From: Escherichia coli
GTDB taxonomy: Bacteria > Pseudomonadota > Gammaproteobacteria > Enterobacterales > Enterobacteriaceae
NCBI RefSeq assembly: GCF_024223415.1
Contig: NZ_CP100500.1
Reading direction: 5' to 3' (one strand)
Length of the DNA stretch: 64,000 nucleotides
Part shown: positions 36,772 through 52,559 of the stretch, one piece after another
Layout of the letters: the number at the start of each line of letters is the position of its first letter
Position numbering within the stretch: position 1 is the first letter of the stretch
Program-made: the position numbers and the translations under genes
The notes under the pieces: generated by a model
The model's database searches: none
Seen by the model: only the letters and a program-made list of their open reading frames with translations
What the model was told of the DNA's origin: nothing

Positions 36772-38235
36772 TTACATCTTGGTATAAGGCTTAAAGCGTT
36801 CCTGCAGCTGGCGCAACTGGTCGATGCGCGCATCGTAACGCGCTTGTTGCAGGCTGCCTAATTTCACCTGCGAACTGGCGCTACTCAACAGCGAAATGGC
36901 CTGATCGAGTCGCCCGGCGAGCGCATAACCTTCTGCTCGCGCAGCCAGTTCCTGATCGCGGTTATTTAGCGCGGCTTCCGCCTGTGCCAGCAAATCCCAG
37001 CCGTTGCTGTCATCTTTATTATTAAAGGTGTAGCGATTCAGAATATTGGCCGCTTCTTGTGGTTGACCGCCTTGCAGATAAGCGTTCGCCAGGTTGAGCT
37101 GCAACACCGGATTGGTGCGTAAATCGCGGGCATTTTTCAGACGATTGATCGCCTCATTGGCTTTGTTTTGCCCAAGATCAATATCGGTAGCCAGATCGAG
37201 ATACCATGCGTTGCCAGGTTCTGCCGCCAGTAACGGTTGCAGCGTTTTTCGCGCCTCGTCGTATTTATTGGCTTCCATCGCCTGTAAAGCACGACCATAT
37301 TGCGCCGCTCGTTGCTGACGAACGTTTCCTTTCGCCCATTCATCCAGCAAATCACTGGTGAGCTGGTTACGTCCGGAATTATACATCCCCAGTGTGCGCG
37401 CTTTCGCCAGATAGAAATCTTCCGACGACTGCACCACCATCGGGCGCATCTGATTAGCACGGTTGCGGGCATCTGCCAGACGACTTTCCGGCAACGGGTG
37501 AGTCAGTAAAATTTCCGGCGGGCGCGAGGAGTAACGCGCCTGATCGAGTAATTTTTCGAGGAAGGTTGGCATCGCCTGCGGATCGAATCCCGAGCGTTGC
37601 AGCACCTGAATACCAATGCGGTCCGCTTCCTGTTCATTTTGCTGGGTGAAACTGATCATCCCCTGACGCGTTCCCGCCAGTGTACCGGTCAGCGCCGCCA
37701 TCCCCGCCTGCGGACTGGCCATCGCCAGTAAAATAGAACCTAACGCGCCGACCCAGGTCAGCGGCGCGCTGCGCTGCTGATCTTCCATCGCTCGCGCCAG
37801 GTGACGTTGGGTGACGTGGGAGATTTCGTGCGCCATAACTGAAGCCAGTTGACTTTCGTTATCGGAATAACGGAACAGGGCAGAGTGCAGCACCACGTTG
37901 CCGCCAAAGAAAGCAAAGGCGTTAATTTCGTCGTTGTTGATCAGAAAAAAATGAAACGGTGTCTTAACCGAATTGGCATGCGAAACCAGACGCATCCCCA
38001 GCGAATTAATATATTGCGTTAACAGCGGGTCATTAATTAACGGCGCGCTGCCGCGTAGCTGGCGGACATAATAGTCGCCCATCTGCATTTCCTGACCAAT
38101 GGAAAGCGTGCTTCCTGCGGAGGTTCCCATATCCGGCAAGGTGTCTGCGCTGTCGGCAAATGCCGGGGCTACCTGACCAATGGTCATAGCAGCAATGAGG
38201 GTTGCAACCAGGTTTTTTTTCAACTGCCTGAACAT
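36772..38235 (-). CDS. bepA: Periplasmic M48 metalloprotease/chaperone BepA with TPR domain
   Basis: 487-aa ORF with signal peptide, HEISH zinc motif and TPR-like C-terminal half. Confidence 0.9.
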
Positions 38236-38447
38236 AACCTCTATCCTGTATTTCTGAAGATAGTCATTTGACCGATACTGTGAAATATCGTTCCCACCGC
38301 GCCGCCTTTGAGTGTAACGGCGAAGATTAGCCCACTCAAATGACTTTTCAGTTTCCTGAATCCGTCATAAAAAGCGAAGTCTTTTTTGTGACATTTCGAT
38401 ACAATTGCGGATCGCAATCCCGCTCTTGAGGTTCAGGGAAGGTCTTT

Positions 38448-39509
38448 ATGCTCGAAATGTTGATGCAATGGTATCGCCGCCGTTTTAGCGACCCGGAAGC
38501 GATTGCCTTGCTGGTTATTTTAGTTGCCGGATTTGGCATTATCTTTTTCTTTAGTGGCCTGCTTGCTCCGTTGCTGGTGGCTATTGTGCTGGCCTATTTG
38601 CTGGAATGGCCAACCGTGCGCCTGCAATCTATTGGCTGCTCCCGCCGCTGGGCGACGTCGATTGTATTGGTGGTTTTTGTCGGTATATTGCTACTGATGG
38701 CGTTCGTGGTACTGCCTATCGCCTGGCAACAGGGCATCTACTTAATCCGCGATATGCCGGGGATGCTCAATAAGCTTTCTGACTTTGCCGCCACGTTGCC
38801 GCGCCGCTATCCGGCGTTAATGGATGCGGGCATTATTGATGCAATGGCCGAAAATATGCGCAGTCGGATGCTGACCATGGGCGATTCGGTGGTGAAAATT
38901 TCCCTCGCCTCGCTGGTCGGTTTGCTGACCATAGCCGTCTATCTGGTGCTGGTACCATTGATGGTCTTCTTCCTGCTGAAAGACAAAGAGCAGATGCTGA
39001 ACGCCGTTCGTCGGGTGCTGCCGCGTAACCGTGGGCTGGCAGGACAGGTGTGGAAGGAGATGAATCAACAAATCACCAACTATATCCGCGGCAAAGTGCT
39101 GGAGATGATCGTGGTGGGGATCGCCACCTGGCTGGGGTTCTTGCTCTTTGGGCTGAACTATTCGCTGCTGCTGGCGGTGCTGGTCGGCTTCTCGGTACTT
39201 ATTCCGTACATTGGCGCATTTGTGGTGACCATTCCTGTGGTTGGCGTGGCGCTATTCCAGTTTGGTGCAGGCACGGAATTCTGGAGCTGCTTCGCAGTGT
39301 ATCTGATTATTCAGGCGCTGGACGGTAATCTGTTAGTACCGGTGTTGTTCTCCGAAGCGGTTAACCTGCATCCGCTGGTGATTATTTTATCGGTGGTGAT
39401 CTTCGGTGGTTTGTGGGGATTCTGGGGCGTATTCTTCGCCATTCCATTGGCGACGCTGATCAAAGCCGTGATCCACGCCTGGCCCGATGGTCAAATAGCG
39501 CAAGAATAA
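38448..39509 (+). CDS. perM: AI-2E-family permease PerM (YfgO)
   Basis: 353-aa polytopic membrane protein, divergent from bepA. Confidence 0.9.
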   Translation: MLEMLMQWYRRRFSDPEAIALLVILVAGFGIIFFFSGLLAPLLVAIVLAYLLEWPTVRLQSIGCSRRWATSIVLVVFVGILLLMAFVVLPIAWQQGIYLIRDMPGMLNKLSDFAATLPRRYPALMDAGIIDAMAENMRSRMLTMGDSVVKISLASLVGLLTIAVYLVLVPLMVFFLLKDKEQMLNAVRRVLPRNRGLAGQVWKEMNQQITNYIRGKVLEMIVVGIATWLGFLLFGLNYSLLLAVLVGFSVLIPYIGAFVVTIPVVGVALFQFGAGTEFWSCFAVYLIIQALDGNLLVPVLFSEAVNLHPLVIILSVVIFGGLWGFWGVFFAIPLATLIKAVIHAWPDGQIAQE

Positions 39510-39515
39510 TCTTCA

Positions 39516-39547
39516 GCCCGACGAACTGTTTCGCCGGGCTGATTTTT
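39516..39547. terminator. Bidirectional terminator between perM and focB
   Basis: Hairpin gcccgacgaa / ttcgccgggc followed by TGATTTTT. Confidence 0.5.
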
Positions 39548-40395
39548 CAGGATTCCTGACGTAAATAAATAGCCCGATAACATATACTCACCAGCACTGC
39601 ACCGCCGATAATATTACCCAGCATCACCGGGAGCAGATTGGCGGTAATAAAATGGCTTACCGTCAGTGCCGGAAAATTGTCTGCGCTACTGTGCGCCAGT
39701 TGCCAGAAGGAGGTAGGGGCGAAATGGCGAATGGCAATGGCGAACGGAATCACAAACAAATTGGCGATACAGTGCTCAAAGCCACTGGCGACAAACAGGG
39801 TGATGGGCAAAATCATGGCGACGATTTTGTCGCATAACGAACGCCCGCAATAACTCATCCACAGCGCCAGGCAAACCATCAGATTGCACATAATGCCGAG
39901 GCTGACAGATTCAGTAAATGTATGATGCATTTTGCCCTCGGCGCAGTGTAAAACCGCGACTCCCCACATCGCGTTTTCACTCATCACCAGCCCGGAAAAC
40001 CAGATTAACAAACTGAAACAGGCAATACCTGCCAGATTACCGCAGGCCACCAGAAGTGCGTTAATCAGCCAAGTTCGCCAACTAATAAGGCCCCGACTTT
40101 TTGCCATCACCGTCATTACCGACGAGGTGAACAGGCTGGTGCCGCAAACCGCCAGCAAAATAAAGCCGAGTGTAAAGCAAAGGCCGCCCACCAGATGGGT
40201 TAATGCCTGTGAAGACGGGGCATCGGCGATAACGGAAAGGTAAAAAGTAAATCCGATCGCCATAAACACGCCAGCGGACATCGCCATTAAAAAGACCGAC
40301 ACTTTACTGCGGGCAATTTTATGGGCGGCAATCCGTTCAGCGATTGCCGCTTTTCTGGCGCTCAACTGCAAGTCGAAAGAGAGTTTGTTTCTCAT
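39547..40395 (-). CDS. focB: Formate channel FocB
   Basis: 282-aa FNT-family membrane protein, last gene of the hyf locus. Confidence 0.9.
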   Translation of the reverse strand: MRNKLSFDLQLSARKAAIAERIAAHKIARSKVSVFLMAMSAGVFMAIGFTFYLSVIADAPSSQALTHLVGGLCFTLGFILLAVCGTSLFTSSVMTVMAKSRGLISWRTWLINALLVACGNLAGIACFSLLIWFSGLVMSENAMWGVAVLHCAEGKMHHTFTESVSLGIMCNLMVCLALWMSYCGRSLCDKIVAMILPITLFVASGFEHCIANLFVIPFAIAIRHFAPTSFWQLAHSSADNFPALTVSHFITANLLPVMLGNIIGGAVLVSICYRAIYLRQES

Positions 40396-40416
40396 GCATA
40401 CTCCTGCAAAAACAGA

Positions 40417-42429
40417 TTACAACACCTCGCGAACCGAGATCCCCAGCCGCTGCATTCGTGACAGCAGCGTGGTGCGCTTCATCCCTAATCGCGTCGCTGC
40501 GCCACGGGGCCCGGCAACAATGCCATTGGTTTCTCGCAATACCTGAACAATGCGCTGACGTTCTTCTTCGTCATTCTCTGGCGTCGTCGGGTGCAGTAAC
40601 TGCGCCATTGAACTGCGAAGCGCTGAATCTTCATTTAGCGTCGGCAGTAAACGGCTTTGTCGGACATTAAGATGTAAATTCAGACTGTTACCGCGAGTCA
40701 GTAGTACCGCTCGCTCAATCACGTTTTCCAGCTCGCGCACGTTGCCCGGCCAGTCCCACGACATCAACTGGCGTAGCGCCTCGGTCGGGATGGCGTCAAT
40801 TGCGCGATTCATATGGCGCGCCATTTTTTGCGTGAAATGCTTTGCTAAAAGAGGGATATCTTCCGGACGGTCGCGCAGTGGCGGCAGTTCCAGTGGGAAG
40901 ACATTCAGGCGATAAAAGAGATCGCTGCGAAACTGGCGATCTTCAACCATTTGCCACAAATCACGGTTGGTGGCGGCAATGACTCTGACATTTACCGGGA
41001 TCGTTCTACTCCCGCCGAGACGCTCAATTTCCCGTTCCTGCAATACGCGCAGCAGTTTAGGCTGAAGTTCTAACGGCAGATCGCCAATTTCATCGAGAAA
41101 CAACGTGCCGCCATCGGCAATTTCAAAACGACCACGATGGGTATTAATCGCACCAGTAAATGCCCCTTTGTCATGACCGAATAACTCACTTTCCAGAAGA
41201 CTGGCGGGGATGGCAGCGCAGTTGATTTTGACCAGCGGCTTGTCGCGTCGTGGGCTAAGTTGATGGATCGCTCTGGCGATCACCTCTTTGCCGGTTCCGG
41301 TTTCACCACAAATCAACACCGTACTGTCGCTCTTCGCCACAATATCTACCTGCTGGAGCAAATCTTCCATTGCCTGGCTTTGATAGATAATGTCACCGAC
41401 GCCCAGATTCGAAAGGAGCTGCTCGCTAAGCTGGTGGTTTTCTTGCTGCAAGCTTTCCTGCAAATCGGTCATGCTGCGCCAGGCATCGGCATTGCCAACG
41501 GCAATAGCGATGCGATCGGCAATATGTTGTAGTAGCTGGCAGTTTTCCTCACTAAAGAGAGTGGAAGATGTATGCGCCAGCAACAATGCACCCGGTGTAT
41601 GGTTGCCAAAGGTGAGCGGTATAAGGAGCGCAGATTCGCAGCCGTTAGATGCAAGTAAGTGTAATAACGGGTCGCGTTGCCAGAGAAACAGATCGTCTGC
41701 ACGGTGCGTCAAGGTCGGTTGTCGGGTTTGTAGCGTTTGTGTCAGCAATACACTTTCGCCAGGCATACTGCGTGGCAGACATGCACAATCTGAGGCGGAA
41801 AAAACGCTGCACCACAGGCTGAACTTCTCGTTCTTTCGATGATCGCCCAGTACCATACAGACTGAAGCCAGACCGAAAAAATGATGGATCTCACGAGCGA
41901 CGTCAGCGATCAGATCGTCGAGATCAAGATGTGACAACACTGCATTAGTGATATCCACCAGTACCCGATGATGATCGCGATCTTTCTCCAGCAAACGCAG
42001 CGCCACCTGCTGTTCTTCATCATTGAGCCATGATTGCAGAACCGGGGTGATTATCCGCGCCAGCCAGTTAAACAGTGTGCAATCCTGGGGAGTAAAACGG
42101 CTGCCGTGAGTGCGAATAAAGCGTAGCTCCGCCATTCCACTACTGCCGAGAAGGACGGCGTGACGCGAATAATCGACCATCTCGCCCTGATACTCTGTTG
42201 TTGCCGTCACATCGCTGCCATCATCATGGTAGCGGTAATAGAAGTTGCTTTTGAGAACATGCAGTTCAATAAGTTGTACCGGGCTGAACGGCGGCGGCAG
42301 CGGGATGAAGGCGCGTAATAAAGACGCCTTGCCGTGTTTCTGCGCTAACCGCTCCGCGAGCATTCCGTTTACCGCTTCAATTGTTATTCCTTGTGGCGGG
42401 GCAAACATCGCCTCGTCTGACATAGCCAT
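40417..42429 (-). CDS. hyfR: Sigma-54-dependent transcriptional activator HyfR
   Basis: 670-aa product with GAF-like N-terminus, AAA+ sigma-54 interaction domain (GETGTGKE) and C-terminal HTH. Confidence 0.9.
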
Positions 42430-42458
42430 CAACAGTCCTTATTAATGAGAAATCCTTC

Positions 42459-42872
42459 TCACGCAATTTTTCTGGCCATCAGATAGATGGCCGGTTCCTG
42501 CACAATTTCATCCAACAGATGAATGAATTGAATGCTACGCGCCTGCCACGCCGACGTCGCGTCATCTGCCAGTGGCGCGAATGCCCGGGTCAACAGGGCG
42601 GTGTGGCTGGCGTCAATAACAATCTCACCAAAGGTCATCACCCCCAGCATCTTACGTCGGGCTTGCTTCTCTTCGACCTGTGCAAGCCAATCTTCGTATT
42701 CCGTCTGTGGGCAGCGGAAGGCGACATTCAGACAATCAATCACGCCAACGTGATGACCGATAGCCAACGAGTAATACATTACCTGGGAGCTGTGTTCCGG
42801 CATCTCGTCGCTACTGGCGATAAATTTTTTTCGCAGCGTCCAGAAAACAATTTCCCCGCACTCTTCAGTCAT
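42459..42872 (-). CDS. hyfJ: Hydrogenase-4 maturation/assembly protein HyfJ (HycH-like)
   Basis: 137-aa product from [11 protein letters not shown]; overlaps the hyfI stop by 8 nt. Confidence 0.85.
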
Positions 42873-43623
42873 GTAACCCCCGGAGTACGCGAAAGAGTTG
42901 CTGAACGATACTATTGAGACGTGGATCATCGGCATCGCGCAACCAGGTGTTAACCCGATTTCCTGTAGGATCGTCGCTTAAATGGCGCAGGAGCCGATCG
43001 CAAATTTCTCGCCCCTGACGATAGCCCGCCAGCCGCCGCGCTTCTCGCTCAATGGCGATACGCTGTGATGGCGGGATCTGCGGCCACAACGGTTGCATAG
43101 TCACCCCGGTGGGATCGCGATAATCCACCGCGTGAATCTTCTGTTGCAGCAAACCGAGCGCCACGGCGAAACCGTGAATGGTGGCGGCCGGTGTTGGCGG
43201 GCAGCCGGGGATCCAAACATCAATGGGGACAATGGTGTCGCTGCCGCCCCAGACGCTGTAGAGATCGTGGAAAATACCGCCGCCGACACCGCACGCGCCG
43301 TAGGAAACACAGATTTTATGATCGGGGGCAGACTCATACGCCCGAAGTGCAGGCATACGCATCGCCCGGGTGACTGCGCCAGTAAATAACAAAATATCGG
43401 CGTGACGCGGTGATGAAACAACCTTAATGCCAAAACGTTCTGCGTCGAATACGGGTGTGATGGCGGCAAAAATTTCGATTTCACAGGCGTTGCAGCCGCC
43501 GCAATCGACGCGATAAACGTAGGCTGAGCGACGGATATCCTGTAGCAAATGCCGCTTCATCTTTTGCGTTTGCTCGTCCAGCGTGATGGGCTGGCTGACA
43601 TGTTGTGTAAGCACTGGACTCAT
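42865..43623 (-). CDS. hyfI: Hydrogenase-4 small subunit (NuoB-like)
   Basis: 252-aa ORF with NuoB-type Cys motifs. Confidence 0.9.
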
Positions 43624-44165
43624 AGCTGCTCCTTAGCCACCAGCGGTACATCTGTATCGTCGTTGATCAGCGTCGCGCGTTGTTTGCACTCCGGGCAGAC
43701 GCTCGCTTGCGCCCGCAACATTTCGCGGTTTTGTGGCGCATTTTGTTGCTGTGCCAACAATTCAGCAGCCAGTGCGACGGTTTTTTGCGGGGCAAACGGG
43801 CGTTCGCAACGGCTGCAACGTTGTAGATGGAACGTCGCGCGGGTATAGAGATCGGCTTTATTGGTGACGGTCAGTTCAAAGTTATTGGTAAGCTGAATGG
43901 CTCTGGTCGGGCACACTTCTTCACAACGTCCGCAGTAAATACAACGCCCCAGATAGAGCTGCCAGGTGCGCGAATTTTGCTGGTCGTCGGTCTGGATAGT
44001 CAGCGCATTTGCCGGACAAGCACAGGCGCAGGCACCACAGGCAATACATTGGCTGGGCATCAGGTCCGGTTTCCCGCGAAAGCCTGGGCTGACCTCCAGT
44101 GGCGCGAAGGGATATTTCACCGTCGCGGTTCCGGCGCGCATAATAGTTTTCAGTAACTTCAGCAT
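43620..44165 (-). CDS. hyfH: Hydrogenase-4 ferredoxin-type subunit
   Basis: 181-aa ORF with two CxxCxxCxxxCP motifs. Confidence 0.9.
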
Positions 44166-44174
44166 CTTCTGTCC

Positions 44175-45890
44175 TTACTTCAGCGGCGAACGGTTACGAT
44201 CAATGCCGTAGCGTTCGATCTCTTTATACGGCACGGTTTTTGACTGGCGCTTGCGCACATCAACCAGCGTCACACGGTCGGTACAGGAGTAGCAGGGATC
44301 AAGGCTACCGATAATCAGCGGTGCGTCAGAAACGGTATTGCCGCGTAGCATGTAACGCAGCACCGGCCAGTTGGCGTAGGTGGCGGCACGACAGCGCCAG
44401 CGGAACAATTTTTGATTATCACCGAGCATGCTCCAGTGCACGTCTTCACCGCGTGGCGCTTCAACAAAGCCGAGTGCGAATGCGTGAGGTTTATAGCTAA
44501 AGCCTTCGGTCAGCAGCGGGGTATCCGGCATGTTGTCGAGGGCAAATTCCAGCATTGCCAGCGAATCAAACGTCTCTTTGACACGGACCATCACGCGGGA
44601 GAAGACATCGCCGCCGGTAAAGGTAAACAGTGTTTTTGGAATATTGCCGTAGTCGGCGTAGGGGTGATCAAAGCGCAAATCACGGGCAAAACCACTGCCG
44701 CGGATCAGCGGTCCTACGGGGCTATAATCACGGGCGATTTGTCGGTCGAGAATGCCAATGCCCTGAGTGCGTTGTTCCATATTCGGCGTGGCAAGCAGCA
44801 TTTCTACCAGCTCCGACACGTCGGCGCGCATCTCGCGCACCAGTTTCAGCGTTTGCAGACGTTGCTCTTTGAGAATATCGCGGCGAACACCACCAATCAG
44901 ATTCAGACCGTAGGTTTTACGCGACCCGGTCAGCAATTCCGCCATTGTCATCGACTTTTCCCGCACGCGGAAAAATTGCATAAAGCCGGTATCAAATCCA
45001 ACAAAATGGCAGGAGAGGCCAAGGTTGAGCAAATGACTGTGTAGCCGTTCGACTTCCAGCAGAATCGAGCGAATGGTATGCGCTCGTTGCGGCACCTCAA
45101 TCCCCAGTGCATTTTCAACCGAGTTGGTATAGGCCACACTGTGGGCAAAACCGCAAATCCCACACACGCGGTCCGATAAGAAGGTCACTTCGTTGTAGCC
45201 CATCCGCGTTTCTGCCAGTTTCTCCATGCCGCGATGGACATAAAACAGGCGGTAATCAGCATCGACAATTTGCTCGCCATCCACAAACAAGCGGAAGTGA
45301 CCCGGTTCATCGGAGGTGATATGCAGCGGGCCGACAGGGATCACCCGCGCATCGCTGTTGCCCTCATTGATAAACGGATACGTTTCGGAATCAGTCGTCG
45401 GTTCAGGGCGCAGTCGATAATCCATCGCATCTTTGCGCAGCGGATGCATATCTTCCGGCCAGTCATCGGGCAACACCAGGCGACGCTGATCCGGCAGGCC
45501 AACCGGAATCAGCCCGTACATATCGCGAATTTCTCGCTCGCCCCAGACCGCGGCAGGGACGCGCGGTGTGACTGACGGAAACTCCCGACTGTCGGCATCG
45601 ACCAGTGCCTTCACCACGATCCAGCATTTTTCGGCCCCTTCCATAGAAAGGGCATAATAAACCGCGTAATGACCGTTAAGTGTCCGCTCGTCGTTGCCAA
45701 ACAGGACCGGAAGCCAGCCATCATGTTGATAATAAAGATACTGTACAACGTCAGGCAGCAGATTGATTTTCACCGTAATGGTGACCTGTTCAGGCGTTTG
45801 TCGCTCTTCATCCAGCACCGCGCCGGGGAACTGCGTTTTCAGGGCGGCGAGAATCGCTTCGCCACGATTTGACGATGAATTAACGTTCAC
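44175..45890 (-). CDS. hyfG: Hydrogenase-4 large (NiFe) subunit
   Basis: NuoC/NuoD-like fusion with C-terminal DPCxxC; start placed at the GTG at 45890 preceded by GGAGA; the ORF-track ATG at 45935 has no Shine-Dalgarno. Confidence 0.85.
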
Positions 45891-47460
45891 TGTGTTTCTC
45901 CGAAACAGATGCGGTGCCTGAAGGCAAAAAATCATGCCAGGTGCTACGTTGTGCAGGCAGGTCGTGCGTCCCTGAGAGGACTATAGTGGAAGCGCCCGCC
46001 AGGATCCTGATGACAGGTTGTGGAATATGCGTTCCCATCGCCAGCATCATGACCAGCAGAATCACCATTGGCGAGGTGGTCAACCAGCCGAGATCACCCC
46101 GGTTAACGGCCTGCGGCGGTTTCGCCATTAACACCCGCGCAGCCATCCGTACCAGGCCCGCCAGCACCAGCGTTAACAGCAATAACAGCATGACGATAAT
46201 CAGCAGGTGATTACGCGCCAGTCCGGCGGTAACGGTCATAAATTCGCTAAGAAAAATGTTGAAGGGCGGCATCCCGGCCAGCGCCAGCGCACCGCCGCCA
46301 AACAGCACGGCGGTAAATGGCATGATTTTGAGCATCCCGCAGACGACGTTGAGATCGCGCGTGCCGTACTTGAGCAGTACATTGCCGGAACCGCAGAACA
46401 GCAGCGTTTTTGCCAGACTGTGGTTTAAGGTGTGCAGCAGCGCGGCAAAAATTCCCAGCGGCCCGCCAATGCCTAGCGCCACCGCGACCAGTCCCATGTT
46501 CTCCACGCTGGAGTACGCCAGCAGACGCTTAATGTCCCGCTGTACCAGAATGAAAAATGCCGCCACGGCAACCGACAACATGCCGAAGATGAGCAACAAC
46601 CGGTTGGGGAAATCGCTGCCGATGGCCTGGCAAATAATGATGTAATAGCGAATCAGCACCAACAGCGCGCAGTTCAGCAATACGGCGGAGAGTAGGGCGC
46701 TGACCGGACTCGGCGCTTCACTGTGAGCATCCGGCAGCCAGGCGTGCATGGGAAATAGCCCGGTTTTGGTACCAAAGCCAATTAGCACAAACACAAAGGC
46801 CAACAGCATTAATGTTGGGTCAAGCAAGGACGATTGCTTAAGAACCTCGCTCCAGAATATCGCCATTTCTGCCTGCGGCATAACGCTGGCGGCGTTGGCG
46901 TATACCAGCACGGTACCGAACAGACCAAAAGCGACACCAACAGTACAAATAATGATGTACTTCCATGCTGCTTCCAGCGATGAACGCTGACCGTAAATGC
47001 CTACCAGAAACGCCGAGCTTAAGGTGGTGGCTTCGATCGCCGCCCACATCACAATCAGGTTATTGCTGGTAACAACCAGCAGCATGGTGAACAAAAACAG
47101 ATGGAAGAAACCGTAGTAATCGCACAGCGTAACGGGTGAAAGCTCGCCGTGAGCCACTTCATGACGCATGTAGCCAATCGAGTAAACACCGGTGAGAAAG
47201 CCAATCACACCAAGAATGGCGAGGAACAAACCGCCCAGACCATCAATATGAAGCCACAGTCCCGCAGCGAATATTTCTCCTGCATCAGCGGCAGTTTGGA
47301 CCACCCAGAGTGCCAGAATCAGCAGCAGTGTGATCCCTAAGCAATGTAATACGGTCACCGTGCGAGTCGCAGAGTGCCCCCGTTTCCGGCAGGCAAAACA
47401 GAGCAGCGAAAAAAGCAGCGGCGTGAGCAGGAGTAAAGCGAACATCACAGAATAACTCAT
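45880..47460 (-). CDS. hyfF: Hydrogenase-4 membrane subunit HyfF (NuoL/M/N antiporter-like)
   Basis: 526-aa polytopic ORF. Confidence 0.9.
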
Positions 47461-47464
47461 CTCA

Positions 47465-48115
47465 TTATCCCTTCAGCGCGGTCAAGTTGTTCACGTCCAG
47501 CGTGCCGTGGGTACGCCATATTTTTCTTGCCAGTAACACCATCACAATGACGGCGAAGATGGCGTCGGTAGCGATACCTATTTCCACCAGTTCCGGTGCT
47601 CGCCAGGCAAGAAGCGCCAGCACCAGATGGGAGCCGTTTTCCATCAGGCAGTAACCAAAAATTTGCCGCAGGATATTGCGCTGGCTGACAATGCACAGCA
47701 GGCCAAGCAGAAAATGACCTAACGCCACCGCCAGCGCCGGTTTCAGCCCGGTAGCCATCGGTAGCTTCACGGGCTGAACGACAAATGCGCAAAGCAGGAC
47801 AATTAACGCCGCGAGCAGTGCCATCATTGCCGGACCGAATAACGCTTTTTCCGGGATGTTCTGGGGAATATTTCGTGCAGCGTAAGTCATGATTAACGGT
47901 ACCAGCAGCACTTTGGTGATAAAGGCGCTGGCGGACCAGATCAGCAGTTGCTCTGCGGCGAACAGGCACGAGAGAGTGGCGAAAATAGACACCAGCACCA
48001 GCGACTGGCAGACGTAAAATCCGCATGACAGGCGATAGCTTTTGACGCTAATCACAAACAGCGATGTCAGCATCATCAGTCCCGCCAGATTATTTACGAT
48101 CGTAGAACCGGTCAT
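47465..48115 (-). CDS. hyfE: Hydrogenase-4 membrane subunit HyfE
   Basis: 216-aa hydrophobic ORF. Confidence 0.9.
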
Positions 48116-48126
48116 TCATCATCTCC

Positions 48127-49566
48127 TTACTGCAACCAGGTCGCGGCGATTACGCTGGAAATCAGCGACATCACAATCAGTACAATCAGCACCAGGCGCA
48201 TTGACCCTGGCAGCGGTGCGGCATCGGCGACGGCCTCGCTCGGTTTGCCCGGCACGACGCGACCAAACCAGCGAATAAACCAGGCGAAACTGGCGACCGA
48301 TTCAATCATCAGCAGAATCATGGCGGGCAGCAGGATCCAGTACTCCACTGACAACGCAAAACCGGCGGCAAACAGCGGGAATTTACTGAAGAAGCCGTTG
48401 AACGGCGGCACACCGGTAATCGCCAGCGCTGCCACGCAGAAACCCACGCCTGGCAACGGCAGGGTGTGCAATACGCCACGCAGACGCGGCAACAAGCGCG
48501 TGCCGCAGCTGTAACTCAGCGCACCTGCTACAAGGAAAAACAGGCTTTTAGCGAACGCGTGGTTGACGATGTAGGCGATGCTACCCTCCAGCGCCAGCCG
48601 CGAGCCGAAGATGGAGAGCGACAAGCCGAAGAACATCCAGCCAAGTTGAGTGATGGTCGACCAGGCCAGCAACCGCTTCATATCCTGCTGTGGCAAATAC
48701 ATCAGAAATCCATAAAGAATGGTGACCAGGGCCATGACCATGCCAACGCCGCCAATCACATGCGGGATATTGCCACCGTCGATAATGGCGCGGGCAAAAA
48801 TGTAAACGCCCACTTTCACCATCGATGCGGCGTGGAGATAGGCGCTGATCGGTGTTGGCGCTTCCATTGCGTCCGGTAGCCACGCTTGCATCGGTAGTTG
48901 GGCCGATTTCCCCCACGCGGCAAACAGGATGCCGCCATAAACCAGATAACGTGCGTCGCCGTGTAACTCGCTCATCGCGCTAAGCGCAAACGTTCCGGTC
49001 TGCAAAAACAGCGTGGCGGCGGCAAGATACAATCCCAGCGAACCGATATGGGTGATAAGTAACGCTTTTAGTGCTGAACGCTGCGCTTTATCGCTCTGGT
49101 AATAACTGATCAACGCCCAGGAGCAGCCGCCCGTAATTTCAAAAAACAACAACTGACCGAGCAGCGTCGAGGAGAGTACCAGTCCCGCCATCGCGCCGAT
49201 AAAAACCAGCAAAAATGCGTAATAACGATTCGTACCGTTATGCGGGTGTTCGCGATTTTTATCCGTCAGATAACCCGTGGAGTAGATCGTGACCAGCAAA
49301 CCGAGAAACACCACCACAAACAGAATCAGCGTACTCACGCGATCAATGAGCAGGCCAAACAACGCCACATCCCCCACGTTGACCAACGTCAACGTGACGG
49401 CAACTTTATCGGCCTGATAAAACGCGGAGATCAGTGACAACATGCACAGCGTGGTCAGCGCGGCGAACAAAACCCCCCATTCGGCGGCCCGACGTTGTGG
49501 CGAAAACGAAACGACCAGTGCGCCGATAAAAGGCATCATTAACGTCGTCAGAGCAAGATTTTCCAT
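48127..49566 (-). CDS. hyfD: Hydrogenase-4 membrane subunit HyfD (antiporter-like)
   Basis: 479-aa polytopic ORF. Confidence 0.9.
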   Translation of the reverse strand: MENLALTTLMMPFIGALVVSFSPQRRAAEWGVLFAALTTLCMLSLISAFYQADKVAVTLTLVNVGDVALFGLLIDRVSTLILFVVVFLGLLVTIYSTGYLTDKNREHPHNGTNRYYAFLLVFIGAMAGLVLSSTLLGQLLFFEITGGCSWALISYYQSDKAQRSALKALLITHIGSLGLYLAAATLFLQTGTFALSAMSELHGDARYLVYGGILFAAWGKSAQLPMQAWLPDAMEAPTPISAYLHAASMVKVGVYIFARAIIDGGNIPHVIGGVGMVMALVTILYGFLMYLPQQDMKRLLAWSTITQLGWMFFGLSLSIFGSRLALEGSIAYIVNHAFAKSLFFLVAGALSYSCGTRLLPRLRGVLHTLPLPGVGFCVAALAITGVPPFNGFFSKFPLFAAGFALSVEYWILLPAMILLMIESVASFAWFIRWFGRVVPGKPSEAVADAAPLPGSMRLVLIVLIVMSLISSVIAATWLQ

Positions 49567-49582
49567 ATTCCGTCAGTGCTCC

Positions 49583-50530
49583 TTACAGACCGGTTAACCA
49601 GAAGACCCATGCAAGCGCAGCAAGGCTGAAGCCAAGCCAGGTCACATGGTGAATGAGTAAAAAACGCCCGCGTGCCAGCGTGTTTTCTGCGATAGAGGCC
49701 AGAACAAAAATCAGCAAAACCTTGAGCAGCGTAACGACAAGTGAAGTCAGCAGGCAGGCGAGAGAAAGTTCTTGCGCGCGCCCAAAGGGCAGAAACAGGG
49801 CCACAAACAGTGCTGCCATCACGACCTGTTTCAGCCCCAGCCCCCATTTCGCTAGCGCCAGCCCGGCACCGGAATATTCTGTCAGCGGGCCTTCCTGTAA
49901 TTCCTGTTCTGCTTCAGCAACATCAAAGGGAATTTTTCCCATCTCAATGAAGCAGGCAAAACCACAGGCCAGTAACGCCAGTACGGTGGTTAGCGGCGAG
50001 TTCCAGCCCGTTGCCAGCGTATTGCTGATCATCTCGATATGCGTGGAACCTGCTATCAGCGCCAATACCAGCAGTGAGAGAATGAGCATGGGTTCGACCA
50101 GAATGCCGAGCGTCAACTCGCGACTGGCACCGACTCCCGCAAACGGGCTTCCGGTATCCAGCCCTGAAAGAGCAAAGAAAAAACGAAACAGGGCAAGAAG
50201 ATAGATAAGGGTGATCAGATCGCCGCCGCCCGCAAAAGGGGAAACGGTAATAAATAGTGGTAGGGCCATCGCCAGCACCAGCATGCTGCTGATTAATACC
50301 CACGGCATCAGGCGGAACATCAGACCTGAAGATGTCGGCGCAACTTCCTGCCGTTTAAACAGTTTGTGGATATCGCGATAATCCTGCCAGATCCCCGGTC
50401 CGCGGCGGGAGTGCATTCGCGCGCGTATCTGCCGGGAAATACCCGTAAAAAGTGGGGTTAGCATCAGCAGAATCACGGCCTGTGCTAACTCAAAAATGAC
50501 CAGATATCCGTCGCAAAGAGTTTGTCTCAT
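49583..50530 (-). CDS. hyfC: Hydrogenase-4 membrane subunit HyfC (NuoH-like)
   Basis: 315-aa product from MRQTLCDGYLV; the ORF track extends 7 codons upstream. Confidence 0.9.
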   Translation of the reverse strand: MRQTLCDGYLVIFELAQAVILLMLTPLFTGISRQIRARMHSRRGPGIWQDYRDIHKLFKRQEVAPTSSGLMFRLMPWVLISSMLVLAMALPLFITVSPFAGGGDLITLIYLLALFRFFFALSGLDTGSPFAGVGASRELTLGILVEPMLILSLLVLALIAGSTHIEMISNTLATGWNSPLTTVLALLACGFACFIEMGKIPFDVAEAEQELQEGPLTEYSGAGLALAKWGLGLKQVVMAALFVALFLPFGRAQELSLACLLTSLVVTLLKVLLIFVLASIAENTLARGRFLLIHHVTWLGFSLAALAWVFWLTGL

Positions 50531-50540
50531 GGTGATTTCC

Positions 50541-52559
50541 TTAGACGGCAATAGCGATTAGCAGCACAACCAGTGCGGCGACCACATACAGGCAATAGAG
50601 ACGAAAGTCGCCGCTTTGCAGATGCTGTATTTCTTTGGCCAGCCGTTGGGTGGCGCTCACGATGGGGCGGATCACCCGCTCATCCCAGAAGGGTTCTGTG
50701 CTCTGAGCCCTGGCGGTGACGTGCGCAAGACCTTTATTTAGCCTCAGCGTAGGGTCGAGCTGTTGTCGTAGACGAAATAGCGCAGAGAAGACCACACGCA
50801 GCGGCTGCATCACGCCATTGCCTGACGGGGCCATCGCATTTTCCCAGCCGTAGCCGCATGCCCAGGCATCTCCTGTGCGACGAAACGCTGCGCGGCGCGA
50901 ACGACACCACAGCCAGTAAAGGCCAGGCAGCAAAGGCATCGCCAGTAGTAACAGCAACAGTAATGAGGGGGTGACCTGTGTATGAAACGTGCCGGGTACA
51001 AGTGCTATTCCGCTGGCGACAGTGACGGGAGGGGTATTGGTAAACGCATGGGCAATATGCATTATCTTCGGTGCCAGCCAACTGGCACTAAGCGCAATTA
51101 ATACGCAGAGTGCCGCGAGCAGTAGCATGGCGACGATCATCGTATTTGGCACTTCCTGTGCCTCTTCAGCGTGTGTACTGCGCGGCGCACCACAGAAAGT
51201 AATACCGTACATTTTGACGAAGCACATTACTGCCAGCCCACCAGTGACTGCCAGCATCACCATAGCAATAGGACCCGCAAGTTGTAGCGCTACGGCTTCC
51301 ACACGACTTAGTGAGAACAGCGACTGCCAGGTGTACCATTCGCTGATAAAACCATTCAGCGGAGGAAGGGCTGATATCGCGAGGCAACCAATCAGGCATG
51401 CTGCGGCTGTCCACGGCATCCGTTTTGCCAGTGCCCCCATTTTTTCCATGTCGTGGGTATGCAAACGCGAAATAATCGCACCCGCGCCGAGAAATAGCAG
51501 CCCTTTGAACAGCGCATGGTTGAGCAGATGAAACAGTGCGCCGAGCAGTCCAACCACGGTGAGCAGCGGGTCGTGCAGTGACAGACCGACCATCGCCACA
51601 CCGACTGCCAGCAAAATAATGCCGACGTTTTCGACGGTACTCCAGGCCAGCAGCCGTTTGATATCCTGTTCCGCCAGCGCATATAGCACGCCCAGGAGCG
51701 CGGAGATTGCGCCGATCGCCATCACCAGAATGCCCCACCACAGAGGCAAACCCGTTTGCGCCAGCAGATCCATCGCTACTTTCAGGATGCCGAAAATACC
51801 GATTTTGACCATTACGCCAGACATCAACGCCGAAGCGTGCGATGGTGCGGCAGGGTGAGCGCGCGGCAACCAGCTGTGCAACGGCATCATCCCGGCTTTC
51901 GCGCCAAAACCGAAAAAGGCCAGCAGGAACACCGCCGACGCCAGCCCCGGAGAAAGTGAAAGCGTGCGGAAACTGGCAAAATCTAGGCTGCCGCTTTCGC
52001 GCCCCATCAGCAAGAAGGCGATCATAATCAGCACCGATCCGGCGTGGGCGATAAAAAAGTAGAGCATGCCAGCGTTGATCGACGTTTTATCCTGCCTGGC
52101 AATGACCAGAAACCAGGAAGACAGCGACATCATTTCAAACAGCACGATGAACCAAAAAGCGTTGTCCATCACCAGCAGGGCAACCATCGATGCGATGAAA
52201 ATATTCATAAAGAAGCCCATCGCCGCCGCGCCTTTGCCCTCGTATTCGCGCATATAAGTCAATGAATAGAGCGAACAAACCACCACCAGCAAGGAGATAA
52301 CCAGCACCATAAATGCCGAGAGGCTATCCATTCGCAGGGTTAAATCGGCAAAGTCAAAAGGGGTGGCAAAACGGGCGACTAAAGTTACGCCTGCATGTAA
52401 TTGCGTAATTCCGCTGATGATGCCAATCACGCCGCCCACCAGCGATGTGATGCCGGAAAGCTTAATAGCCAGTCTGTCCAGACCGAGTAAAAACAGCGAA
52501 GCCAGACTGGCAAACAGATAGAGGATCAGCGACCAGGTTAATAATTGCAGGGCATCCAT
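50541..52559 (-). CDS. hyfB: Hydrogenase-4 membrane subunit HyfB (antiporter-like)
   Basis: 672-aa polytopic ORF; start overlaps the hyfA stop. Confidence 0.9.
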   Translation of the reverse strand: MDALQLLTWSLILYLFASLASLFLLGLDRLAIKLSGITSLVGGVIGIISGITQLHAGVTLVARFATPFDFADLTLRMDSLSAFMVLVISLLVVVCSLYSLTYMREYEGKGAAAMGFFMNIFIASMVALLVMDNAFWFIVLFEMMSLSSWFLVIARQDKTSINAGMLYFFIAHAGSVLIMIAFLLMGRESGSLDFASFRTLSLSPGLASAVFLLAFFGFGAKAGMMPLHSWLPRAHPAAPSHASALMSGVMVKIGIFGILKVAMDLLAQTGLPLWWGILVMAIGAISALLGVLYALAEQDIKRLLAWSTVENVGIILLAVGVAMVGLSLHDPLLTVVGLLGALFHLLNHALFKGLLFLGAGAIISRLHTHDMEKMGALAKRMPWTAAACLIGCLAISALPPLNGFISEWYTWQSLFSLSRVEAVALQLAGPIAMVMLAVTGGLAVMCFVKMYGITFCGAPRSTHAEEAQEVPNTMIVAMLLLAALCVLIALSASWLAPKIMHIAHAFTNTPPVTVASGIALVPGTFHTQVTPSLLLLLLLAMPLLPGLYWLWCRSRRAAFRRTGDAWACGYGWENAMAPSGNGVMQPLRVVFSALFRLRQQLDPTLRLNKGLAHVTARAQSTEPFWDERVIRPIVSATQRLAKEIQHLQSGDFRLYCLYVVAALVVLLIAIAV

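Follow-up and report, generated by a model that had tools for sequence, protein, structure and literature searches.

The GTG start codon of hyfG at the end of hyfF and a 48-bp length polymorphism of hyfG in Escherichia coli

In the stretch of E. coli DNA analysed here (64,000 nucleotides, referred to below as the window), hyfG, the gene for the catalytic subunit of hydrogenase 4, is very probably translated from the GTG at 45890–45888, with the ribosome recruited by a Shine-Dalgarno (SD) sequence and in a layout that would couple the gene to hyfF; the product would comprise 571 residues. This start is already given by the databases and the literature, and as a finding it is ordinary. The one point of potential interest is a length polymorphism: the K-12 allele of hyfG starts at the same codon and encodes a protein 16 residues shorter.

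Layout of the hyfF-hyfG junction

The two genes, the candidate start codons, the SD sequence and the repeats discussed below are all found on the minus strand of the 64-kb window, and their coordinates are compiled in Table 1. The longest open reading frame for hyfG in the ORF list opens at the ATG at 45935–45933 and would encode 586 residues, and the GTG lies in the same frame 15 codons further in. The 3' end of hyfF was read directly as ...CAC AGT GAA CGT TAA, and the GTG begins 8 nt upstream of the hyfF stop codon. Six nucleotides (45896–45891) intervene between the GGAGA and the GTG. The sequence-only reading that preceded this analysis had given this distance as 7 nt, which is correct if the count starts at the last A and stops at the first G, and its estimate of about 11 nt for the overlap of the GTG frame with hyfF proved exact (45890 to 45880).

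Table 1. Coordinates of the features of hyfF and hyfG in the window
Feature	Position	Strand	Description	Basis
hyfF CDS	45880..47460	minus	526 aa, antiporter-like membrane subunit of hydrogenase 4	ORF list and translation; RefSeq annotation of the identical SCU-316 sequence
hyfF stop codon TAA	45880..45882	minus		Direct sequence reading
hyfG initiation codon GTG	45888..45890	minus		RefSeq start in 15/15 sampled genomes; kept in 7 other-genus species; GUG start in PMC7384014
SD sequence GGAGA of hyfG	45897..45901	minus	6 nt 5' of the GTG	Within hyfF codons Ser-Glu-Lys
hyfF/hyfG overlap	45880..45890	minus	11 nt, GTGAACGTTAA	Sequence and annotation (coordinates 2111-2121 in L001)
In-frame upstream ATG, non-start	45933..45935	minus	Made up from the hyfF His codon CAT and the G that follows it	
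hyfG CDS	44175..45890	minus	571 aa, full-length ancestral-type allele	Translation; RefSeq WP_001102327.1; Pfam; HycE match, E = 6e-293
48-bp segment, HyfG codons 386-401	44688..44735	minus	Present here, absent in K-12	Alignment to MG1655 at the protein and DNA levels
Direct repeat GCCCGTGATT, copy 1	44726..44735	minus	Left edge of the 48-bp segment	K-12 retains a single copy
Direct repeat GCCCGTGATT, copy 2	44678..44687	minus	Just past the 48-bp segment	Alignment with MG1655

The remainder of the operon is packed as well, with overlaps in the RefSeq annotation of 1 nt between hyfA and hyfB, 4 nt between hyfH and hyfI and 8 nt between hyfI and hyfJ. In the RefSeq annotation, the identical region runs from hyfA to focB (operon hyfABCDEFGHIJR-focB), and hyfG occupies its place in the hyf operon, downstream of the genes for the antiporter-like HyfD and HyfF and upstream of hyfH and hyfI, to which the window ORFs at 43620–44165 and 42865–43623 correspond, respectively.

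The product has the features of a group 4a [NiFe]-hydrogenase large subunit of the HycE kind. It is a fusion of a NuoC-like (30 kDa) and a NuoD-like (49 kDa) portion, matching PF00329 with 86 bits and PF00346 with 171 bits as well as PF00374. Both CxxC motifs that provide the Ni-Fe ligands are present in the translation, the C-terminal one reading DPCYSCTDR, and a C-terminal assembly peptide follows the Arg of this motif (CTDR/VTLVDV, with the slash at the cleavage position), R/VTLV being the HyfG-type cleavage site (PMC7384014).

Selection of the initiation codon

In order to compare the two candidate codons, the 17 nt upstream of each were paired with the 3' end of 16S rRNA, and the predicted energy was -6.6 kcal/mol in the case of the GTG, compared with +0.5 kcal/mol for the ATG; the sequence-only reading that the ATG has no SD sequence is thereby borne out. 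Pairing as strong as that of the GTG is predicted for 5.7% of all NTG triplets in the window, and the arrangement of GGAGA, 5–8 nt and GTG occurs in the window no more often than by chance (5 found, 4.76 expected). The motif is significant because it stands at the head of the hyfG open reading frame and is conserved across genera.

A 1.2-kb junction query matched 4294 of 5426 complete E. coli genomes. The PGAP annotation starts hyfG at the GTG, with the 11-nt overlap, in the 100%-identical SCU-316 sequence and in 14 further E. coli genomes sampled across the identity range, and the ATG is used in none of these 15 genomes of the current RefSeq annotation. The exact 571-residue product is found on at least 1000 contigs, whereas the 586-residue product of the ATG is found on one, as a GenBank/RefSeq record (EGI20837.1 / WP_001313144.1). 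K-12 (b2487, HYFG_ECOLI) does not differ from the window over the 101 nt that span the junction, and it has the same GTG, SD sequence, 11-nt overlap and operon.

Initiation at the ATG would extend the protein by 15 residues and lengthen the overlap with hyfF to 56 nt. Apart from the single database record, this alternative has in its favor that no start codon precedes the ATG in the open frame, which makes it the default of an ORF finder, that ATG is a stronger initiator than GTG, and that it is invariant in all five aligned E. coli junctions, so that low-level use within E. coli would be possible as far as the sequence itself is concerned. The comparison with other genera speaks against it. 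The junctions of seven species from four genera (Klebsiella indica, four Citrobacter species, Phytobacter ursingii and Brenneria) all have hyfG headed by GGAGA, 5–6 nt and GTG, with predicted anti-SD pairing of -6.6 to -8.5 kcal/mol; the SD core is kept in every one of them as CGGAGA, GGGAGA or AGGAGA, and the overlap of the hyfG start with the end of hyfF amounts to 4, 11 or 23 nt. The position of the E. coli ATG is occupied in these other genera by AAG, GTG or ACG, and between this position and the GTG the hyfG frame is interrupted by a stop codon in four of the seven. In C. amalonaticus the hyfF His codon is CAC, and consequently there is no ATG at that position.

Protein comparisons agree with the shorter form. 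The sequence-only reading had proposed an alignment with HycE as a check on the N-terminus, and in this alignment the homology starts at the GTG form: with the solved HycE chain 7z0s_E, it opens at HyfG residue 7 and HycE residue 4. HycE, the large subunit of hydrogenase 3 (PDB 7Z0S/7Z0T), has the same NuoC-NuoD architecture and can be aligned with HyfG from end to end (E = 6e-293), and given the GTG start the two N-termini agree within 3 residues; it is a paralogue that belongs to a different operon and to a complex with a smaller membrane arm. The match to the NuoCD family model opens at residue 17 of the 586-residue form, corresponding to residue 2 of the GTG form. A model specific to HyfG is lacking in NCBIfam, where the only matches were to NuoD, NuoCD and FpoD, all below the cut-offs; they served solely to locate the beginning of the homology. 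In an alignment of 134 largely HyfG-type proteins, most have 20–28 residues ahead of the conserved FPG motif, compared with 20 in the GTG form and 35 in the ATG form. Nothing comparable to the 15-residue extension is seen in HycE, NuoC or the HyfG homologues. For these reasons, and with its unfavorable predicted SD pairing, we consider a start of hyfG at the ATG to be extremely improbable.

A second alternative, that both codons are used to produce a major 571-residue and a minor 586-residue form, appears very improbable to us. The two codons share one open frame in E. coli, ribosomes translating hyfF would keep the region unfolded, and there is no sequence feature that forbids leaky initiation at the ATG. 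The objections to the ATG start nonetheless apply equally here, and there is no sign of selection maintaining the extension, because the presence of the ATG hangs on the synonymous choice between CAT and CAC in a hyfF His codon.

The GTG start also corresponds to published usage. Finney et al. (2019; PMC7384014) state that hyfG begins with GUG, and Finney et al. (2020; PMC7654741) number HyfG from the same GTG, with a tag site at Gly-85/Ala-86 and with hyfG nucleotides 1–1569 reaching the mature C-terminal Arg. In Pectobacterium atrosepticum, HyfG (ECA1241) likewise has a reported GUG start (PMC7384014), the same subunit role and the same R/VTLV processing site; the Pectobacteriaceae homologues are about 75–80% identical to HyfG, with an N-terminus that is 7–8 residues longer. 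Brenneria, which is related to the Pectobacterium locus, has the SD sequence and a GTG overlapping hyfF by 11 nt, but there the head of hyfG reads GTGATG and the ATG may serve as the start. Direct mapping of the HyfG N-terminus by Edman degradation, N-terminomics or start-site ribosome profiling was not found in the literature, and laboratory strains barely express hyf (PMC7384014). The preference for the GTG expressed in the sequence-only reading is thus backed by RefSeq, by conservation across genera, by homology to HycE and NuoC and by the GUG start stated in the literature.

Proposed coupling of hyfG to hyfF translation

The positions of the start codon, the SD sequence and the overlap, together with their conservation, are established by the sequences compared here, and from this geometry only we infer that translation of hyfF and hyfG is coupled. 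A downstream start that overlaps an upstream stop is the classic geometry of coupled translation. The two genes lie on the same strand and in the same operon, the start of hyfG overlaps the stop of hyfF, and the ribosome-binding site of hyfG is embedded in the hyfF coding sequence. The GGAGA inside the last hyfF codons would recruit the ribosome to the GTG, and ribosomes finishing hyfF would move across the start region of hyfG, unwinding it, and would come to a stop only a few nucleotides away, so that coupled and roughly proportional synthesis of HyfF and HyfG would be favored. GUG is a less efficient initiator and is expected to limit output, and this weak start codon probably holds HyfG production at a modest level. 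A limitation of HyfG output by the GUG has been suggested by Finney et al. (PMC7384014).

Alternatively, the GTG might be used independently of hyfF translation, with the overlap reflecting nothing other than compact packing, and although we find this rather unlikely, part of the evidence fits it well. The SD sequence is strong and well spaced, and the predicted fold of 100 nt of RNA at the junction is no more stable than that of shuffled sequence (z = 0.39); with no significant structure masking the site, or for an upstream ribosome to melt, independent initiation at the SD sequence is equally feasible. On the other hand, in every one of the seven other species the start still overlaps the end of hyfF, and in P. 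atrosepticum the removal of membrane-arm genes altered the levels of HyfG, for which the authors discuss effects on the translation of downstream genes (PMC7384014). A small GUUUC-GGA-GAAAC hairpin around the SD sequence was considered as a regulatory element and was rejected, being unconserved in the other genera.

The 48-bp deletion in K-12 and hydrogenase 4

According to the sequence-only reading, the annotated length of HyfG did not exactly fit either start codon. The mismatch is real, but the choice of start codon is not its cause. The hyfG gene of MG1655 begins at the same GTG and, with 1668 nt, encodes 555 residues (HYFG_ECOLI) compared with 571 in the window, because the K-12 allele has a 48-bp in-frame internal deletion that removes codons 386–401 of the window allele. 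In the protein alignment the two alleles differ by this single internal gap of 16 residues and by the substitution T321I in K-12. The 10-bp direct repeat GCCCGTGATT at the edges of the segment has only these two copies in the 64-kb window, where 0.19 would be expected, and the reduction from two copies to one in K-12 is the signature of a deletion by slippage or microhomology.

All seven outgroup hyfG genes contain the 16-residue segment with hardly any variation, and it is found in every homologue from outside E. coli and Shigella among the 134 aligned proteins; the deleted state of K-12 is therefore derived. Two entries, P0047 and P0058, that could have been taken for non-E. coli proteins without the segment were discarded, the former being an E. 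coli allele in which a further deletion has occurred and the latter a chimera from metagenome assembly. An insertion of the 48 bp in the lineage of the window was rejected, since the outgroups, HycE, MbhL and the complex I subunits all have the segment. The segment is conserved throughout the superfamily of complex I and group 4 hydrogenases and can be aligned with ARDFSNVGPMVRASGH of HycE, AIEMGAVGPTARGSGI of P. furiosus MbhL, AIDLGLTGGSLRASGV of T. thermophilus Nqo4 and AWDWGCSGPILRGSGI of the complex I ND7 chain 7arc_D. The HycE segment includes Arg395, a residue on the proposed proton pathway to the [NiFe] site, and this residue is equivalent to Arg397 of HyfG (residue 407 of the tagged HycE chain minus the 12-residue tag insert). 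Removal of the segment lowers the Pfam score for the 49-kDa family from 170.6 to 129.6 bits.

The deletion is carried by about half of the hyf-carrying E. coli genomes. The K-12 junction probe (80 nt, E <= 1e-24) matches 2115 complete genomes, compared with 2173 for a probe that includes the 48 bp; the two probes together cover 4288 of the 4294 hyfF-hyfG carriers. Deleted alleles are found, among others, in K-12 derivatives, O26:H11 and an APEC O78:H51, and full-length alleles in O157:H7, O145, O169:H41 and the strain of the window. Six sampled deleted alleles differ by 0–12 nt from each other and by 13–32 nt from the others, and such a tight group is consistent with a single origin. The deleted group also has P196L, beside the glutamate of the β1-β2 loop. 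The summed pairwise pN/pS is 0.26 in the deleted group and 0.05 among full-length alleles, which, because the sample is small and non-independent, is only suggestive of relaxed constraint on the deleted alleles.

Finney et al. (2020) observed no hydrogen production by hydrogenase 4 (Hyd-4) in K-12 despite the use of the Phyc or PT5 promoters, and likewise none with a HycE C-terminal swap and an extra protease, whereas the formate hydrogenlyase-2 (FHL-2) of P. atrosepticum is experimentally active (PMC7654741). The 48-bp deletion may help to explain why hydrogenase 4 activity has not been demonstrated in K-12. We put forward tentatively, and with less than even confidence, that the 555-residue HyfG of K-12 is a derived deletion allele which, if the deletion is crippling, would be a main reason that Hyd-4/FHL-2 activity has gone undetected. 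Against a crippling effect, deletion of hyfG in K-12 BW25113 was reported to have hydrogen-flux phenotypes (PMC10758574), and if these are specific the 555-residue protein would retain some role. In the literature on hyfG, hyf and FHL-2/Hyd-4 we found no report of the deletion; coverage of this literature was incomplete and a prior description is possible.

Strains of the window type, with an intact 571-residue HyfG and an intact hyfI (O157:H7 and SCU-316 are examples), may encode a working FHL-2. To our knowledge, work on hydrogenase 4 of E. coli has been carried out almost entirely in K-12. The start codon matters for annotation and for the design of constructs, in which residue numbering, the placing of tags and the sparing of the hyfF/hyfG overlap all depend on it. 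The deletion, if its proposed effect is true, would be a simple and testable reason for the long-standing puzzle of a 'silent' or inactive Hyd-4 in E. coli, and strains with a natural full-length allele, or a K-12 allele in which the 48 bp have been repaired, would then be the right material for the study of E. coli FHL-2.

Loss of the 48-bp segment of hyfG

The features of the hyf locus are compiled in the table below. Deletion of the 48-bp in-frame segment of hyfG, which is bounded by 10-bp direct repeats, was found in K-12 and in 2115 of the 4294 hyf-carrying complete E. coli genomes. The segment encodes a 16-residue motif (GPxxRxSG) that is conserved across the superfamily, and the equivalent of Arg 395 of HycE, the large subunit of hydrogenase 3, which lies on the proposed proton pathway of that enzyme, falls within this motif.

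Features of the hyf locus (window coordinates)
Feature	Position	Strand	Remark
Whole hyf locus	about 37,000-51,000	minus	
hyfI, small subunit gene	42865-43623		intact in window
hyfG stop codon with the 9-nt spacer separating it from hyfH	44166-44177		
48-bp in-frame hyfG segment	44688-44735	minus	present in window, deleted in K-12
10-bp direct repeats bounding the segment	44726-44735 and 44678-44687	minus	
HyfG residue 196 codon	about 45303-45305		
Hairpin GUUUC-GGA-GAAAC	45891-45903	minus	minimum-energy fold

Four of the six sampled strains with the deletion allele (L014, L016, L017 and L018) also carry the substitution P196L in HyfG, accompanied in each by R182Q. Residue 196 adjoins the glutamate equivalent to Glu 193 of HycE, and P196L alters the β1-β2 loop motif SDEPGHF, which is otherwise invariant.

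Junctions with hyfF and hyfH

At the hyfF/hyfG overlap, 12 nt that follow directly after GTG AAC in Citrobacter and Klebsiella indica are absent in E. coli (window 45882-45887), so that the former read GTG AAC TAT TTG GAC AGC GTT AAT whereas E. coli reads GTG AAC GTT AAT. This absence leaves both overlapping frames, hyfF and hyfG, four codons shorter simultaneously and cuts the overlap from 23 to 11 nt. In the minimum-energy fold, the Shine-Dalgarno sequence of hyfG sits in the loop and 3' arm of a small hairpin that is without statistical support and is not kept in other genera.

Two database proteins of 740 aa each, P0018 (on five contigs) and P0019 (on three), are HyfG-HyfH read-through fusions. 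The hyfG stop is lost in both, and hyfH stays in frame through the 9-nt spacer.

Lesions across the hyf locus

In sampled loci such as L023, L024 and L025, hyfI is frameshifted after codon 116 by a 1-nt deletion (T348), and exact matches to this allele turned up among the complete E. coli genomes in at least 683 cases. The frameshift occurs together with the deleted hyfG allele in O26:H11, E2865, 98E11 and APEC O78:H51, and together with full-length hyfG in O8:H8 16F5M1D1; because it is found with both hyfG alleles, the two lesions are not strictly nested. Other sampled strains carry frameshifts or internal stops in hyfF, a frameshift in hyfH or an internal stop in hyfR, and a search of 5426 complete E. 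coli genomes for the hyfF-hyfG junction found no match at all in 1132 of them. The hyf operon looks to be decaying across the species along several independent routes.
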